From Candidatus Aenigmatarchaeota archaeon (GTDB lineage Archaea; Aenigmatarchaeota; Aenigmatarchaeia; GW2011-AR5; JAGGXF01), in contig JAOZPR010000004.1 in the NCBI GenBank assembly GCA_029932645.1, positions 26,048 through 43,453 on the forward strand: DNA of 17,406 nucleotides. The letters are read 5' to 3'. Shown here piece by piece: positions 1,886 through 17,392 of the stretch. A model generated the notes under the pieces. That model searched no databases and had not been told where the DNA came from. It saw nothing but the letters and a program-made list of their open reading frames with translations. A program made the position numbers and the translations under genes. Within the stretch, counting starts at the first letter, position 1, and every line of letters starts with the position of its first letter.

Positions 1886-2392
1886 TTGGTGGTTAAAATT
1901 ATAAAGCATGTTCTAATCCCAGAAGAAAGGGTTGCTGTTTTAATTGGCCGTGGTGGGTCTGTTAAGAAAGAGTTAGAAAAGCATGGTGTTAAAATAGCAA
2001 TCGAAAAGGAATGTGTCAAGATATCTGGAAACGCATTGAATGTCATGGTAGTAGAAAGTGTTGTTAAAGCCATTGCTCGGGGATTTTCGCCAGAAACGGC
2101 TTCATCTTTATTCAACGAAGAGAATGTCCTGCAAATAAGACCAATCGAGCTGGAAAAAAATCAGCTCAGAAGGATAAAAGCGAGAGTTATAGGAACGAAA
2201 GGCAAAACTAGAAAAAATCTTGAGTTGCTTACCAATACAAAAATGTCTATATATGGAAAAACAGTATCTATAATAGGCAGGCCAGATAATGTAAAGCTTT
2301 GTCTTGGGTCGATAGAAAAATTAATTAATGGGTCTTCACATAAGTTTGTATATCAGTATCTTGAAAAAAGGTGTCATCATAATGAGCAATGA
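1886..2392 (+). CDS. dim2: KH-domain 16S rRNA maturation protein Dim2/Pno1
   Basis: Two KH GxxG motifs (VLIGRGG, RVIGTKGKTR), AIARGFSPE and C-terminal GSSHKFVY. The start may be TTG 1886 or GTG 1889. Confidence 0.92.
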   Translation: MVVKIIKHVLIPEERVAVLIGRGGSVKKELEKHGVKIAIEKECVKISGNALNVMVVESVVKAIARGFSPETASSLFNEENVLQIRPIELEKNQLRRIKARVIGTKGKTRKNLELLTNTKMSIYGKTVSIIGRPDNVKLCLGSIEKLINGSSHKFVYQYLEKRCHHNEQ

Positions 2393-3968
2393 TAATAATG
2401 AAAAAACGGCAGAATATTTTGCAACGCAGCAGAAAGAAATATCTGTATCGCAGTTCTTTGAAAAGAATAAGCATTTGCTCGGTTTTGATAATCCGACAAA
2501 AGCCCTTCTCATGATAGTTAAAGAAGCTGTTGATAATAGTCTAGACGCGTGCGAAGAGGCAGAGACGGTGCCAAACATTAAGGTGGTTGTAAAAAACTCT
2601 GAAGGCAACAACTTCAGGGTATCTGTAACAGACAATGGCCCTGGGATTGTAAAAGAACAAATACCGAAAATCTTTGGTAAGTTGCTGTACGGCTCTAAGT
2701 TTCATCACCTAAAGCAAAGCAGGGGACAACAGGGCATTGGTATCAGCGCTGCTGTGCTGTTCTGTCAGCTGATGACAGGCAAGCCAGCTAAAATCTGGTC
2801 CAAAACAAGTAATAAAAAATATACACATTATTGTGAACTTTTGATAGACTCAAATAGAAACGAACCGGATGTTATAAAAGAGGAGGATATTGAAAATTCC
2901 GTGATAAAAGAGCATGGAACAAAAATAGAGATGGAAATTGTTGGCAGGTACAGACGAAAGCAAGGTGTTGATGACTACTTGAAACAAACATCAATATCAA
3001 ATCCGTTTGCAAAGATAACGTATCATAGTCCTGATGGGAAAAAAACTGTCTTTCCGAGATCTGTCACTAAACTCCCTAAACCTGCCAAAGAGATTAAACC
3101 ACATCCGTATGGCGTTGAGTTTGGTATTCTGGATAGAATGCTGAAAAAGACAAATGCAAAGACACTGGTTTCATTCTTAACAAAAGAGTTTTCCAGTGTC
3201 GGAAGCAAAGGTGCGAGGGAGATATGCAAGCTTGCCAAGCTAAAGAAATCCGCTTCACCAAGCTCTCTGAAAAGAGCCGAAATAAAAAAACTTCTTCTTG
3301 CTATGCAAAAAGTAAAGATACAAAGGCCGCCGCTGGACTGTATATCACCAATAGGCGAGGAAGAGTTCAAAAAGAGTCTTAAAAAAGAGTATCCCGAAGC
3401 TGAGTTTGTAACAGCAATTACAAGAGAGCCTGCTGTTTATAGAGGAACTCCGTTTCAAATCGAGGTCGGCCTGGCCTATGGCATTGATGGAAGAGACGAC
3501 AAGAGTGCAGAGATTCTAAGGTTTGCAAATCGTGTACCCCTGATGTATCAGGCTGGTGCCGGGGCTATACTAGAAGCTGTGAAAAAAACCGACTGGAAAC
3601 GCTATGGCCTTCAGCAACCAGCAGGCAGTATTCCATTGGGACCACTTATAATTGCTATTCACATGGCGTCTTCTTGGGTGCCCTTCATATCTGAAAGCAA
3701 GGAAGCTATAGCACCATACCCAAACATTGTTAAGGAGATCAAACTGGCTATTCAAGATGCTGGCAGAAAGTTGTCTTCATTTTTATCCGGAAAAAGGCGT
3801 TTGGGTGAACAAAAAAGAAGACTGCAGGCGTTTGAAAGGTATGCCACAGAGGTTGCTTACGCCTTATCAGAATTAACTGAAAAAAATAGAAAAGAGATAG
3901 AAAATAAAATAATCGAACTGATAAAAGAGAGAACCAAGCTAAGAAAAGATGGTGATGGTAATGAATGA
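2382..3968 (+). CDS. top6B: DNA topoisomerase VI subunit B
   Basis: GHKL motifs VKEAVDNSLDA, DNGPG and QSRGQQGIG, plus RFANRVPL and VPFISESKEA. Start placed at ATG 2382 because of the SD-like AGGTG at about 2369. Confidence 0.97.
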   Translation: MSNDNNEKTAEYFATQQKEISVSQFFEKNKHLLGFDNPTKALLMIVKEAVDNSLDACEEAETVPNIKVVVKNSEGNNFRVSVTDNGPGIVKEQIPKIFGKLLYGSKFHHLKQSRGQQGIGISAAVLFCQLMTGKPAKIWSKTSNKKYTHYCELLIDSNRNEPDVIKEEDIENSVIKEHGTKIEMEIVGRYRRKQGVDDYLKQTSISNPFAKITYHSPDGKKTVFPRSVTKLPKPAKEIKPHPYGVEFGILDRMLKKTNAKTLVSFLTKEFSSVGSKGAREICKLAKLKKSASPSSLKRAEIKKLLLAMQKVKIQRPPLDCISPIGEEEFKKSLKKEYPEAEFVTAITREPAVYRGTPFQIEVGLAYGIDGRDDKSAEILRFANRVPLMYQAGAGAILEAVKKTDWKRYGLQQPAGSIPLGPLIIAIHMASSWVPFISESKEAIAPYPNIVKEIKLAIQDAGRKLSSFLSGKRRLGEQKRRLQAFERYATEVAYALSELTEKNRKEIENKIIELIKERTKLRKDGDGNE

Positions 3969-5034
3969 TGTAACTAAAAAGCTGAATAGCCTAGGTGAAG
4001 ATATATTAAATGATATTGAAAAAGGAAAAAACCCAGGAATGGAAATACCGATAAGAAGCCTGTCTAATATAATTTATAATAAAAAAACGAAACAGCTTAC
4101 ATTAGGCAACAAAAAATTAAAAAGATCTTTCTTTAATGTGGCACACTCCAAAAAATTCATGCAAACACTCTTGGTTGCAGCATTCTGTAAATCTCTTGTA
4201 AAGGAAAATATACACACTAGTATAAGGGATATGTACTATAATCTGAAAAGAACATTCCCAGGTTCAAAAGAGAACACGTTCGATCAACAGTCAGAATCAG
4301 ACCCGATAATAGTCGACCTCGAGGTTATGCTTAATGTGTTACGTGAACAGCTCAGACTGACAACGGACAGAAAAGGCATTGTTGCTGGTAATGTGGTGAT
4401 AAGAGACCGCGGTGATTTAATCGACTGGTCAAAGCTTGGTTCTGGTGGCTGGTCTATACCATCGACTGTTGAGGAAGTTGAATTCAAAAAAGTTGATGCT
4501 GACTTCGTCTTGGTTATAGAAAAAAATGCTGGATTTGAGCGGTTGCATGAAGATAAATTTTGGAAAAAACATAACTGTATCTTAATCGGAACAGGTGGCC
4601 AAGCTGCCCGTGGAGCAAGGTTATTAATACAGAGATTATCAAGCGAGTTCGGCTTGCCTGTATATGTTTTTACAGATGGCGACCCATATGGGTGGTATAT
4701 ATATTCTGTTATAAAATCTGGTTCAATGAGTCTGGCACATGTATCTGACAGGATAAGTACACCAAACGCGAAGTTTATTGGACTAACCATAACAGACATA
4801 TTTAAGTTTAACCTGAAAAAGTGCACAATTAAGGCTAGGGAAGTCGATATAAAAAGAGCCGGAGAGCTTTTAAAGTACGAATGGTTTCAGAAGCCAGAGT
4901 GGCAGAAAGAGATAAACCTTATGATAGAAAAGGGAGTAAAGGCAGAAATAGAAGCCCTGTCCCACCGGGGCCTGAAGTTTATGTCTCAAACCTATTTGCC
5001 TGAAAAAATTAAAAACAAGGAATTCTTGCCATAG
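3961..5034 (+). CDS. top6A: DNA topoisomerase VI subunit A (Spo11-like)
   Basis: IRDMYY with the catalytic Tyr, TOPRIM motifs VIEKNA and TDGDPYG, and KAEIEAL. ATG 3961 follows GGTGAT and overlaps the top6B stop; 3949 and 3955 are alternative starts. Confidence 0.97.
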   Translation: MNDVTKKLNSLGEDILNDIEKGKNPGMEIPIRSLSNIIYNKKTKQLTLGNKKLKRSFFNVAHSKKFMQTLLVAAFCKSLVKENIHTSIRDMYYNLKRTFPGSKENTFDQQSESDPIIVDLEVMLNVLREQLRLTTDRKGIVAGNVVIRDRGDLIDWSKLGSGGWSIPSTVEEVEFKKVDADFVLVIEKNAGFERLHEDKFWKKHNCILIGTGGQAARGARLLIQRLSSEFGLPVYVFTDGDPYGWYIYSVIKSGSMSLAHVSDRISTPNAKFIGLTITDIFKFNLKKCTIKAREVDIKRAGELLKYEWFQKPEWQKEINLMIEKGVKAEIEALSHRGLKFMSQTYLPEKIKNKEFLP

Positions 5035-5181: not shown

Positions 5182-5337
5182 GCCTTCGTAGCTTAGTGGT
5201 ACTTTGCTCCGAGAGCAGAAGCACCAAAGAGCGTTCGGCTGTTAATCTCTCGTTAGAAAAAACGGCAACCGAAAGGTCGCAGGTTCAAAAGCTAATGGCG
5301 GGTTGCGGCCCGTATGCTGATATTCCTGCCGAAGGCG
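5182..5337 (+). tRNA. trnN: tRNA-Asn(GTT) with three introns: D-loop (about 5202-5226/5228), 37/38 (5245-5267) and T-loop 59/60 (5290-5323)
   Basis: The spliced product folds by hand: acceptor GCCTTCG/CGAAGGC, D-stem GCTT/GAGC, anticodon stem TTCGG/CCGAA with loop CT-GTT-AA (anticodon 5241-5243), variable loop AGGTC, T-stem GCAGG/CCTGC, T-loop TTCAAAT, discriminator G5337. CCA is not encoded. Confidence 0.92.
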
Positions 5338-5339
5338 TT

Positions 5340-5510
5340 GGGACGATAGCTCAGCCTGGTGAGCCTTTTCCTAAATGAATTGGTGTGCAAAGCACATCGA
5401 TTTGGGAAAGAAAAGCTTCAATGAAAAAGAAGGGATCGGGTAAGAGAGCGCACGGCTGAAGTTTTTGGACAGATACCGTGTTGTCGTGGGTTCAAATCCC
5501 ACTCGTCCCA
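5340..5510 (+). tRNA. trnF: tRNA-Phe(GAA) with two introns: D-loop 19/20 (5360-5443, 84 nt) and 37/38 (5462-5474, 13 nt)
   Basis: Acceptor GGGACGA/TCGTCCC, spliced D-arm GCTC-AGCCTGG|GA-GAGC, anticodon stem CACGG/CCGTG with loop CT-GAA-GA (anticodon 5458-5460, G37), T-arm GTGGG-TTCAAAT-CCCAC, discriminator A5510. CCA is not encoded. Confidence 0.93.
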
Positions 5511-5625: not shown

Positions 5626-6291
5626 ATGAAATATAGATATCGAGCAAAGAGAAGTAAATTTAAAGAAGTAGCAAAGGTGCAAAAATCTGGTTCTGGAGAG
5701 GATTTGGACCTAATTTTAGAGAAACTTCGAAGAATTGCAAATAACAAAACAGTTATTGCAACTGTTTTTATTGTAGTTGGTATATTTGCATTATATTCCA
5801 TAACAACAGCTGTGACTGGCTATTATGCTTATCAAGAGGACCTAGAAAACGAGCTGAACCAAACAAAACAAGACTTGGCAAATGCTAAGGCGTTACAAGA
5901 ACAGTGTAAGAAAGATTTAACAACTTGCTCTAGTGAGAAAGTAACCTACCTGACTGAATTGTCAGATACAAAAGGCTTCCTTGAAGCGTGCGAAGAAGAC
6001 AGAGATGATTATAAAAGAGAATGGAATGACTGTAAGGATGAGATTGATGCCATGAATGATGACTTGAACGAGTGTGAGGAAGACCGGGACGAATACAAGG
6101 ACAAATGGGATGATTGCAGGGATGATAAAGAGGCGCTCCAGAACGAGTATAACTCACTCAGAAACAACTACATAGAAGACAAGTGTTGTGCCGGATTCCC
6201 TGGACAGACAATATACTGGAAACTAAGTGGTCAAGAGATTCTGTGTGCGACAAACCAGACATCTGGTTACTCATCATACAACTGTCCATAG
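5626..6291 (+). CDS. Hypothetical single-pass membrane coiled-coil protein with periodic Cys and a C-terminal Cys cluster
   Basis: Basic N-terminus, one hydrophobic segment (VIATVFIVVGIFALYSI), an acidic heptad region with a 28-aa tandem repeat, and a C-terminal CC...C...C. Confidence 0.75.
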   Translation: MKYRYRAKRSKFKEVAKVQKSGSGEDLDLILEKLRRIANNKTVIATVFIVVGIFALYSITTAVTGYYAYQEDLENELNQTKQDLANAKALQEQCKKDLTTCSSEKVTYLTELSDTKGFLEACEEDRDDYKREWNDCKDEIDAMNDDLNECEEDRDEYKDKWDDCRDDKEALQNEYNSLRNNYIEDKCCAGFPGQTIYWKLSGQEILCATNQTSGYSSYNCP

Positions 6292-6308
6292 CTTGTGAGT
6301 AGTTCTGA

Positions 6309-6324
6309 ACAAAGTTTTAAAAAA
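6309..6324 (+). promoter_or_regulatory. Putative BRE/TATA element upstream of endA
   Basis: ACAAAGTTTTAAAAAA has the same AAAG/C-TTTT(T)AA form as the elements at about 5130 and 8154. Confidence 0.4.
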
Positions 6325-6360
6325 CATTAAAGTAATTTTAAATAGGTAATTTTAGCTATG

Positions 6361-6400
6361 CTTAGTACTATGATAATTAATTTAGCACTATGATAATTAA
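6361..6400 (+). repeat. 20-bp tandem direct repeat (2 copies) in the endA leader
   Basis: CTTAGTACTATGATAATTAA and TTTAGCACTATGATAATTAA are 18/20 identical. Confidence 0.85.
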
Positions 6401-6411
6401 TGGTGATATTA

Positions 6412-7023
6412 ATGAAACGAAAAAAGTCCAAAAAAGAAACAAAAGCTGAGGAGAAAGAAACAGAAGAAAAAGATATAGAGAAAGGGACCAAAAAAGACAT
6501 AAAAGCTGTTCTTGAAGAAAATAAAATAATAGTTTGGGATGATTATGAAAATGTTTATGAGCCGGGCTACTATGGAAAAATCATGGACGGTTATCTGGAA
6601 CTGGCTTTTGTGGAAGCGTTGCTGCTTTTGAAGAGAGGGCGAATAAAAGTTTTTGAGGGCAAGAAAGAGTTGGATTTCAAGAAGCTGTTTGAAAAGGCCT
6701 GCGCACTGGACAGAAGACTACCTGAAAGATATCGGGTCTATGAAGAGCTTCGTGAGCGCGGACTTTTGGTAAGAACAGGATTTAAATTTGGCTGTGATTT
6801 CAGGGTCTATGACCGGGGTGTGCAACTCAGGAAAGGGCCAAAAAGTCAGAAGGAACACACGAAATGGATTGTATTCGCTGTACCAGAAGATTATACATGC
6901 TCTTTTCAGGAGTTATCAAGAGCTGTGAGGCTTGCTCATAACATAAGGGCTAAAATGCTTTGGGCTATCGTAGACAATGAAAACGATATCACATACTACC
7001 AGGTCACGAGGCATAAGCCTTGA
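6412..7023 (+). CDS. endA: tRNA-splicing endonuclease, single-unit alpha type, with an atypical active site
   Basis: LELAFVEALLL, RYRVYEELRERG..VRTGFKFGCDFRVY, KEH, RLAHNIR, acidic loop VDNENDITYY and terminal KP. ATG 6412 follows GGTGAT; 6400 is an alternative start. Confidence 0.95.
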   Translation: MKRKKSKKETKAEEKETEEKDIEKGTKKDIKAVLEENKIIVWDDYENVYEPGYYGKIMDGYLELAFVEALLLLKRGRIKVFEGKKELDFKKLFEKACALDRRLPERYRVYEELRERGLLVRTGFKFGCDFRVYDRGVQLRKGPKSQKEHTKWIVFAVPEDYTCSFQELSRAVRLAHNIRAKMLWAIVDNENDITYYQVTRHKP

Positions 7024-7056
7024 TTAGCTTCGCTATTTTGCCTAAATGGTGGTTGG

Positions 7057-8154
7057 ATGCCTGAAAAAGATATTTTTGTGAAAGATGTTCTTGTGAAAAA
7101 TGTTGTCACGTTGGAGCATGATAACACCCTTTCCGAAGCCCTTGGGACTATGAAAAAACATAGTCTTCATCAGCTTCCTGTTATGAAAAAGAAAAAATTT
7201 ATCGGAATGCTCTGTCTCAAAAATGTGATAACGAAAAATGTAGATCCCGAACACACAAAAATAGAGAGCTTAATAATAAAGCCTCCGATAGTAACTAATG
7301 AGCAGAAAATTGAAGATGTTATAGAGCTCTTGCTAAATACCGGGTTAAAGTGTCTGCCTGTCATGAGTAAAAAAATGGGTAAAAACTTAGATGGTGTTGT
7401 GTCTGAAACAGAACTGATAGACTTTGTGGACAAAAGCTGTTGCATTAAGGACCTTGCTTCTGAGCTATTAACTATTTCTGAAAACCAGACCATAGGAAAG
7501 GCGAGAAACATGTTCAGGGAAAAAAATGTTTCAAGATTGCCGGTCGTTGATAACAAGGGCAGACTCATTGGCATTGTGCGTGATATAGACCTGATAAAGG
7601 TCATGGAATCGAAAAAAGAAAAACTTTATGACGAAAAAATTCCAGTGGATAAGCTGTCTGTAAAAACAATTCTAACAAGCCCCATAATGGTGGATGAAAA
7701 AAAGAATGTCGAGGATATCATTCCGCTCATAAAACAACATGGTGAAGTTATAATAACACGTGACGGTCTGCCAACCGGAATAATAACAGCCAAGGACATT
7801 CTGGATCTGATGCGCTTTAAGCCGTCAAAAGAAATCTATGTTGAGATAACCGGATTGAAGGACGAGACAGAGCAAATAAAACTTGATGTAGATAAAGAGA
7901 TAAATAAATTTGTTAAAAAATTTGGCAGGACATTCAAAAATCTCGAATACCTGTTCATTCACGTCGAAAAACTAAGAAAAACTGGAACTAGAACGTATTT
8001 TGATGTGAGAACCAGATTTAAGACACCTCTTGGTATGTTTGTTTCCAGAGCAAAATCGTGGGATATTGTTGCCACTATTGCCAAGGCTCTGGAACGATTG
8101 GAGAAGGGGGTCAGAAAAAAGCATGAAAAAATAGCCGAAAGACACAAAATATAA
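7057..8154 (+). CDS. 4xCBS-domain protein fused to a C-terminal HPF/RaiA (S30AE)-like domain; probable ribosome hibernation factor (Hib-like)
   Basis: CBS motifs HQLPV..FIGML, KCLPV..LDGVVSETEL, SRLPVVD..LIGIVRDIDL and PTGIITAKDIL. The last ~105 aa (YVEITGL...KFVKKF...LFIHVEK...FDVRTRF...FVSRAKSWDIVATIAKALERLEK) follow the beta-alpha-beta-beta-beta-alpha pattern of HPF. Confidence 0.8.
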   Translation: MPEKDIFVKDVLVKNVVTLEHDNTLSEALGTMKKHSLHQLPVMKKKKFIGMLCLKNVITKNVDPEHTKIESLIIKPPIVTNEQKIEDVIELLLNTGLKCLPVMSKKMGKNLDGVVSETELIDFVDKSCCIKDLASELLTISENQTIGKARNMFREKNVSRLPVVDNKGRLIGIVRDIDLIKVMESKKEKLYDEKIPVDKLSVKTILTSPIMVDEKKNVEDIIPLIKQHGEVIITRDGLPTGIITAKDILDLMRFKPSKEIYVEITGLKDETEQIKLDVDKEINKFVKKFGRTFKNLEYLFIHVEKLRKTGTRTYFDVRTRFKTPLGMFVSRAKSWDIVATIAKALERLEKGVRKKHEKIAERHKI

Positions 8155-17274: not shown

Positions 17275-17392
17275 TGCCCCCGACGGGATTCGAACCCGCG
17301 ACCCTCTGCTTTCTCCGTTTCTTCCGTCGACGCTTCTTTTTAAGAAGGGTCGATAGAAGGCAGATGCTCTGTCCAAGCTGAGCTACGGAGGC
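17275..17392 (-). tRNA. trnR: tRNA-Arg(TCT) with a 43-nt intron at 37/38 (17353-17311)
   Basis: Reverse complement: acceptor GCCTCCG/CGGGGGC, D-arm GCTC-AGCTTGGACA-GAGC (with the Arg identity element A20), anticodon stem TCTGC/GCAGA, anticodon TCT at 17357-17355, T-arm GCGGG-TTCGAAT-CCCGT, discriminator A. The intron pairs C32-U33-U34-C35 with GGAG before an AA|A bulge. Confidence 0.95.

Follow-up and report, generated by a model that had tools for sequence, protein, structure and literature searches.

The tRNA-splicing endonuclease (EndA) of a Candidatus Aenigmatarchaeota archaeon carries alanine at the position of the catalytic triad lysine, and this lysine is absent from all alpha-type catalytic EndA units that could be scored in the phylum. 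According to PMC6379350, all four types of archaeal EndA as well as Sen2/Sen34 share a conserved Tyr-His-Lys triad, and PMC3241643 likewise calls the triad conserved in the four types. An alteration that the sequence-only reading of this DNA had presented for one genome is instead a phylum-wide state. What is new here is the missing triad lysine; the basic loop that accompanies it, known as L3, and the enzyme family itself had already been described. A literature search returned no paper on Aenigmatarchaeota EndA and no natural EndA without the lysine, with subscription journals, figure alignments, supplement part 2 of PMC5829648 and bioRxiv supplements outside its scope.

An alpha4-type EndA with alanine in the triad-lysine column

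The endA gene resides in the window (the whole 17,406-nt stretch of DNA that was analysed) and encodes a protein termed P0001 (Table 1). P0001 matches PF02778, PF01974 and TIGR00324, each over the cut-off, and therefore has both the N- and C-terminal EndA domains. Its best PDB match by sequence is Methanocaldococcus jannaschii EndA, 1A79 (phmmer, E 4.7e-33). The same structure is the best fold match (Z 20.1, rmsd 2.2, 168 aligned) of an AlphaFold2 model of P0001 whose mean pLDDT is 75.4, with values of 54-66 at residues 121-150, a segment that includes the L3 loop. An ESM Atlas search with P0001 recovered the same family only, and its named relatives are Aenigmatarchaeota. An alternative start at an upstream ATG (position 6400) would yield a protein of 207 aa, and residues 1-26 form a charged tail of low confidence.

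Table 1. EndA gene, residues of its product and likely tRNA substrates in the window.
Feature	Position	Strand	Basis
endA, tRNA-splicing endonuclease (P0001), single alpha subunit, 203 aa	6412..7023	+	PF01974, PF02778, TIGR00324, 1A79
Lys125, GFKFG motif, basic pocket	6784..6786	+	invariant in 275/275; presumed column of ARMAN-2 K228
Tyr133, triad tyrosine (M. jannaschii Y115, N. equitans Y86)	6808..6810	+	aligned; 275/275
L3 (N. equitans-type) basic loop between Tyr133 and His149	6811..6855	+	gap-free against 3IEY_A; PMC3488258; PMC5829648
Lys144, candidate stand-in for the triad lysine	6841..6843	+	Lys in 275/275; gone in 9/9 beta partners
His149, triad histidine (M. jannaschii H125, N. equitans H102)	6856..6858	+	aligned; 275/275
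Arg173, bulge-binding arginine (ARMAN-2 R275 / A. fulgidus R280 column)	6928..6930	+	275/275
Ala180 (GCT), triad-lysine column	6949..6951	+	Ala 246, Thr 24, Ser 5, Lys 0 of 275
Lys181	6952..6954	+	codon position
Acidic L10 loop, Asp188-Asp192	6973..6987	+	aligned to 1A79; D188 268, E190 260, D192 233 of 275
Arg200, putative second (cross-subunit) bulge-binding arginine	7009..7011	+	Arg in 254/275
tRNA-Asn(GUU), likely substrate; introns in D-loop (5201-5227), at 37/38 (5245-5267) and in T-loop (5290-5323)	5182..5337	+	
tRNA-Phe(GAA), likely substrate; D-loop intron about 5360-5443 (ends +/-1-2 nt) and 13-nt 37/38 intron (5462-5474)	5340..5510	+	
tRNA-Arg(UCU), likely substrate; 43-nt 37/38 intron (17353-17311)	17275..17392	-	

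The acidic L10 loop and the catalytic residues are present in one chain, which is the alpha4 arrangement. In agreement with this type, there is one gene, the pocket and L10 belong to the same chain, and no beta gene is found in the assembly, which is 89% complete. P0001 does not resemble a structural (beta) subunit, as Tyr133 and His149 are invariant and no partner was found in the genome of the window. Of the features expected for a catalytic subunit, Tyr, His and the bulge-binding Arg are present, and the lysine 31 residues after His is replaced by Ala180. Arg173 stands 7 residues ahead of the lysine column, the same distance as in the alignment with 4FZ2. A second bulge-binding role is likely for Arg200, judging from how the family is described in PMC6379350 and PMC3488258.

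In the phmmer alignment of P0001 with 1A79, no gap occurs from His149 to the C-terminus, and Ala180 falls opposite M. jannaschii Lys156. The chains of 3IEY, 5X89, 4FZ2 and 1R0V that align with P0001 all have Lys in this column. Tyr133 and His149 are separated by a spacing of 16, which corresponds to a 6-residue insertion relative to 1A79. These results uphold the sequence-only reading, which had placed Ala at the catalytic Lys position, with a GCT codon followed directly by one for Lys, and had proposed an insertion of about six residues between Tyr and His. That reading had also seen no loop of the CSL/ASL (L1/L2) type at the YGK segment. Indeed, 4FZ2 has extra residues after its YGK motif, whereas P0001 has none relative to 1A79.

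Two trivial explanations for the absence of the lysine can be ruled out. An assembly error is rejected because the GCT codon is identical in contigs from two studies and because relatives also have Ala. Specifically, one contig each from runs X1 (depth 70.8) and X2 (depth 11.9), either of which may be the source of the window, shows no difference over positions 6300-7150; runs X6 and X9 give little or no cover of the Ala180 codon. All four alanine codons are used at column 180 among relatives (GCA 146, GCG 64, GCC 55, GCT 38, redundant loci counted). Also, Lys181 is not a catalytic lysine shifted by one residue, because column 181 is variable (Arg 142, Lys 43, Thr 34, Glu 25, Asn 18 and others) in a set of 275 non-redundant sequences pooled from database homologues, genome loci of the phylum and metagenome loci. 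A displaced Lys181 and an erroneous codon were both outcomes that the sequence-only reading had named as fatal to its proposal, and neither holds.

Loss of the lysine across the phylum

None of the 275 sequences carries Lys at column 180 (Table 1), and Tyr133, Gly142, Lys144, His149, Thr150, Arg170, Arg173, Arg179 and Trp184 are invariant in all of them. Among the best 119 of 1020 database homologues (own record excluded), column 180 is Ala in 118 and Thr in one, and the Tyr-His spacing is 16 in all. Loci from 128 Aenigmatarchaeota genomes, a set that represents part of the matches from the phylum searches, yielded 122 scorable alpha-type catalytic units, and every one lacks the lysine (Ala 111, Ser 6, Thr 5). 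One beta-like copy and two incomplete units, of which one ended at an internal stop and the other at the edge of the region taken, were left unscored. One endA gene (G056, L014:1501-2082) has an in-frame TAA immediately after the triad Tyr, reflecting either an assembly error or a pseudogene.

At least 120 metagenome loci were recovered with a pattern that left column 180 free, such that a Nanoarchaeum equitans-type sequence would have passed. None has Lys, and the 107 distinct sequences among those listed carry Ala (80), Thr (25) or Ser (2). A scan of viral contigs with two patterns gave no match. Furthermore, the lysine is readily seen in other EndAs: it is present in all eight epsilon2-type units inspected in the phylum. 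As a control, we also considered 86 proteins found with an epsilon2 unit, comprising epsilon2 fragments and Methanobacteria-like (mostly) and other alpha4 proteins. All 73 that were scored have Lys, 10 more have Lys in the motif, and three are incomplete.

Units without the lysine form one clade against outgroups (support 100/98, or 100/95 with the loop and column 180 masked). The other DPANN members of the outgroup are only N. equitans and ARMAN-2, which have solved structures, and P0208, a distant protein from another DPANN phylum with a spacing of 10 and Lys present. Because the Lys-less units are monophyletic, a single loss is probable, and it may have taken place in the ancestor of the phylum.

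Introns in tRNA genes of the same genome

The genome of the window (G000; 89% complete, 43 contigs) provides numerous likely substrates for EndA. Of 37 tRNA loci collected, none parses as an uninterrupted cloverleaf; five gave no parse, and the other 32 parse with 51 introns, although a few parses are doubtful. Introns are located at position 37/38 (16), in the D-arm (20), in the T-arm (7), elsewhere in the anticodon arm (5) and in the variable arm (3). Thus, 35 of 51 lie outside 37/38, and a crude rule assigns a relaxed motif to 43 of 51. Removal of its three introns converts the tRNA-Asn gene of the window into a 72-nt tRNA-Asn that is accepted by ARAGORN, and the tRNA-Phe(GAA) gene has a partial match to Rfam RF00005.

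The tRNA-Asn and tRNA-Phe genes are 2 nt apart and 0.9 kb upstream of endA, and ARAGORN overlooks both in the window. Several relatives also have tRNA-Phe or tRNA-Asn near endA, some of them intron-free. T-loop introns of 78-91 nt occur in G000 at C14:19580(-), C26:684(-), C37:32669(-), C42:1866(+) and C5:17556(-), and four of the five are nearly identical across different tRNA genes, which suggests recent copying. The same genome carries a tRNA-Pro with an AGG anticodon (C5:10633-10725, minus strand), unusual for archaea, alongside tRNA-Pro(UGG). Other neighbours of endA on the plus strand are a gene for a protein with four CBS domains immediately downstream (7057-8154), one whose 221-aa product is a coiled-coil protein that has a membrane anchor and Cys/Asp-rich repeats and matches no Pfam family over the cut-off (5626-6291), and ordinary Topoisomerase VI B and A genes (2385-5034) upstream of the tRNA-Asn/tRNA-Phe pair.

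The L3 loop and a candidate substitute for the lysine

The sequence-only reading had treated the basic insertion as a new feature, an interpretation that does not survive alignment with the N. equitans catalytic subunit. In a gap-free alignment with 3IEY_A, residues R140, K141, G142, P143 and K144 of P0001 are opposite K93, K94, G95, K96 and R97. These belong to the N. equitans-specific loop (residues 90-98, with K93, K94, K96 and R97), for which PMC3488258 proposes a role in RNA recognition and a second route to broad specificity. The same insertion is remarked on in PMC3239211. In PMC5829648 it is named L3, is found in alpha4 enzymes of several DPANN lineages and of Hadesarchaea, and is linked to disrupted tRNA genes. 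The counterpart loop of ARMAN-2 has no sequence likeness to that of P0001.

The N. equitans triad is composed of Tyr86, His102 and Lys133, with spacings of 16 and 31 and the lysine retained (PMC2761253). The presence of the loop therefore does not imply replacement of the lysine, because N. equitans has both together. Likewise, epsilon2 units have spacings of 12-18 and keep Lys. The sequence-only reading had offered co-variation between lysine loss and the insertion as a test of its idea, and in its strict form such co-variation can be rejected.

In the EndA reaction, the Tyr activates the 2'-OH, the His protonates the leaving group, and Arg residues sandwich the bulge base. The complex of ARMAN-2 EndA with RNA shows a non-bridging oxygen of the scissile phosphate bound by both the Lys amine and the residue after the His (PMC12397907). 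With Ala in the Lys column, this charge is therefore either supplied from elsewhere or dispensable. We judge that there is about an even chance that P0001 acts as an active alpha4 homotetramer in which Lys144 of L3 supplies the missing charge at the scissile phosphate.

Several features of the alignments point to Lys144 as the best candidate for a substitute, an assignment in which our confidence is evenly divided. It is invariant and never Arg in the 275 sequences, and column 141 exchanges Lys (193) and Arg (80; His in 2). N. equitans, which keeps triad Lys133, has Arg at the Lys144 column, and Lys144 disappears together with the His in the beta copies described below. To this extent, the suggestion of the sequence-only reading that a lysine of the loop may stand in for the triad lysine is credible. 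Invariance within one clade, however, represents a single evolutionary event rather than 275. Also weighing against the assignment, the ARMAN-2 mutants K241A and K244A, altered in its dissimilar L3 counterpart, cleave normally, whereas K282A is dead (PMC3488258).

A plausible series of events can be proposed. The loop would have arisen first, as N. equitans carries both loop and Lys, and the triad lysine would then have disappeared in a single event in the phylum's ancestor. A small residue at column 180 would have left space for a side chain from the loop, and Lys144 would take on the role of the triad lysine by bringing a positive charge to the scissile phosphate. The same basic loop would permit an alpha4 enzyme to cut relaxed introns in the D- and T-arms.

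The main rival, which is possible but which we rate below an even chance, holds that the enzyme needs no substitute lysine to be active. In this case, Tyr and His would suffice together with the Thr150 backbone and Arg170, Arg173 and Arg179, perhaps aided by a bound divalent metal or water, and L3 would only bind RNA and widen specificity. Thr150 and the three arginines are as invariant as Lys144 in the 275 sequences, and a lysine mutant of A. fulgidus EndA reportedly regained activity with divalent metals. Furthermore, in ARMAN-2 EndA bound to RNA, Lys and the residue after His contact one and the same phosphate oxygen (PMC12397907), and the role proposed for L3 is in RNA recognition (PMC3488258). 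Other observations weigh against this rival. The K282A change abolishes cleavage by the ARMAN-2 enzyme (PMC3488258). The complete exclusion of Arg from column 144 fits a specific role better than a general charge, and no new acidic metal ligand was identified near the site.

Lys-less EndA as the probable working enzyme

G000 has one EndA-like ORF and also has RtcB. A canonical paralogue elsewhere in the genome would have undermined the sequence-only reading, and no second EndA or beta subunit was found in this assembly (89% complete), either with three local profiles searched to an E of 10 or with PF01974, alignment A1 and the beta model NF007086. Profile searches also found a single EndA in four relatives whose genomes are in one contig (G162), two contigs (G031) or three (G036 and G098), and each of these has many tRNA matches of intron-bearing length.

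The strongest argument that the Lys-less protein is the working enzyme comes from the sequences of nine genomes in which endA is duplicated into an alpha and a beta copy that are neighbours or lie no more than about 1.5 kb apart (G061, G064, G080, G115, G116, G127, G128, G163 and G185; loci L342-L359 and L118). In the alpha copies the L10 motif is eroded, and Tyr, His, Ala and the G-x-K loop are all still present. In contrast, the beta copies have lost His in nine of nine cases along with the loop and Lys144, keep the acidic L10, and have no Lys in the column. Both copies nest within the Lys-less clade in the tree.

A comparable division is evident in family f10, where a fused two-unit EndA of 364-389 aa (L136:32-1198, L139, L137) has a structural-like unit first and a loop-bearing unit second. 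In the C-terminal unit, Tyr, His and the loop are all present, the Lys column holds Ser, and L10 is shortened. The N-terminal unit retains L10, Tyr and His; its pocket Lys is gone, as are the Arg of column 173 and the motif of the loop. By its sequence, this fusion would be an alpha'2-like form in DPANN. Both splits therefore indicate that, where labour is divided, catalysis falls to the unit that has the loop but not the lysine.

It is improbable that P0001 is weak or non-catalytic, with cutting performed by an unrelated nuclease or by a Lys-bearing epsilon2-type paralogue missing from the assembly. G000 is incomplete and in many pieces, and families f7, f11, f17, f20 and f22 do have an additional protein of about 400 aa. 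Epsilon2-type EndAs of about this size with an intact triad are encoded at L132:247-1434, L123, L129, L134, L135, L138, L140 and L141. Such an enzyme occurs beside the Lys-less one in f7, f20 and f22, and alone in f16 and some f22 genomes. However, the four genomes of one to three contigs have a single EndA, as do those of f1 (3 genomes) and 32 of 33 matching f2 genomes, the exception having two alpha-type copies. Moreover, Tyr, His and Arg are invariant in the Lys-less enzyme, whereas true structural copies in the phylum lose the His. Considering the sequences together, we find it very probable that P0001 is an active, stand-alone enzyme.

Another basic residue (Lys/Arg at 140 or 141, Lys151, Arg170 or one from a neighbouring subunit) is a very unlikely substitute despite the basic character of these columns (Lys in 256 of 275 at 140, Lys in 255 and Arg in 18 at 151, Arg170 in all), as column 140 is Ile or Val in nine sequences and column 141 His in two, Lys151 is retained in the non-catalytic beta partners, and Arg170 is also found in the Lys-bearing chains of A. 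fulgidus, M. kandleri and ARMAN-2.

Lys144 remains the favoured substitute, and a broader proposal that builds on it is tentative, with a likelihood somewhat short of even. The phylum would have relocated its catalytic lysine from position 180 at a helix end to Lys144 of the inserted loop, and the resulting homotetramer would cut relaxed introns wherever they lie in a tRNA. Within the phylum, the Lys-less enzyme would later have given rise anew to both an (alpha-beta)2 pair and a fusion of two units.

Significance and comparison with known systems

A phylum that depends heavily on splicing but has no triad lysine offers a natural test of what this residue does. It also provides a direct route to assigning a function to L3, which has been a matter of hypothesis since 2011-2012, and is relevant to the question of whether relaxed, non-canonical introns are within reach of an alpha4 enzyme. 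In addition, the paired and fused genes amount to recent, independent repeats of the transitions from alpha4 to (alpha-beta)2 and to fused two-unit enzymes.

P0001 is similar to the alpha4 EndA of M. jannaschii (1A79), with both domains, Tyr, His, Arg, the pocket and the acidic L10 in one chain encoded by a single gene. Unlike that enzyme, it has six extra residues in the loop between Tyr and His and Ala in place of Lys156, and its genome abounds in relaxed, non-canonical introns, a kind that alpha4 enzymes are held not to cut (PMC3488258).

The closest parallel for the loop is NEQ205 of N. equitans (3IEY), the catalytic subunit of an (alpha-beta)2 enzyme, which has the same Tyr-His spacing of 16, the same distance of 31 from His to the lysine column and a homologous basic loop. 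In contrast to P0001, NEQ205 still has its triad lysine, Lys133, with Arg opposite Lys144; it carries no acidic L10 and requires NEQ261.

P0001 also resembles the L3-bearing alpha4 EndAs of DPANN and Hadesarchaea (Kaneta et al., 2018; PMC5829648) in combining alpha4 architecture with L3 and with more disrupted tRNA genes. The portions of that paper and of its supplement part 1 that we consulted make no mention of triad lysine loss, and Aenigmarchaeota are named there a single time, when DPANN is spelled out.

Finally, the ARMAN-2 epsilon2 EndA (4FZ2, 9W2K) and the crenarchaeal CSL enzymes have a loop lysine that assists the enzyme, as is predicted for Lys144 of P0001. Their loop lysines, K161 and K44, are described as aiding catalysis and relaxed recognition (PMC12397907; PMC3488258; PMC3241643). 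Those loops reside in the N-terminal domain of enzymes with an intact triad, whereas the loop of P0001 is in the C-terminal domain of an enzyme whose triad lysine is gone.
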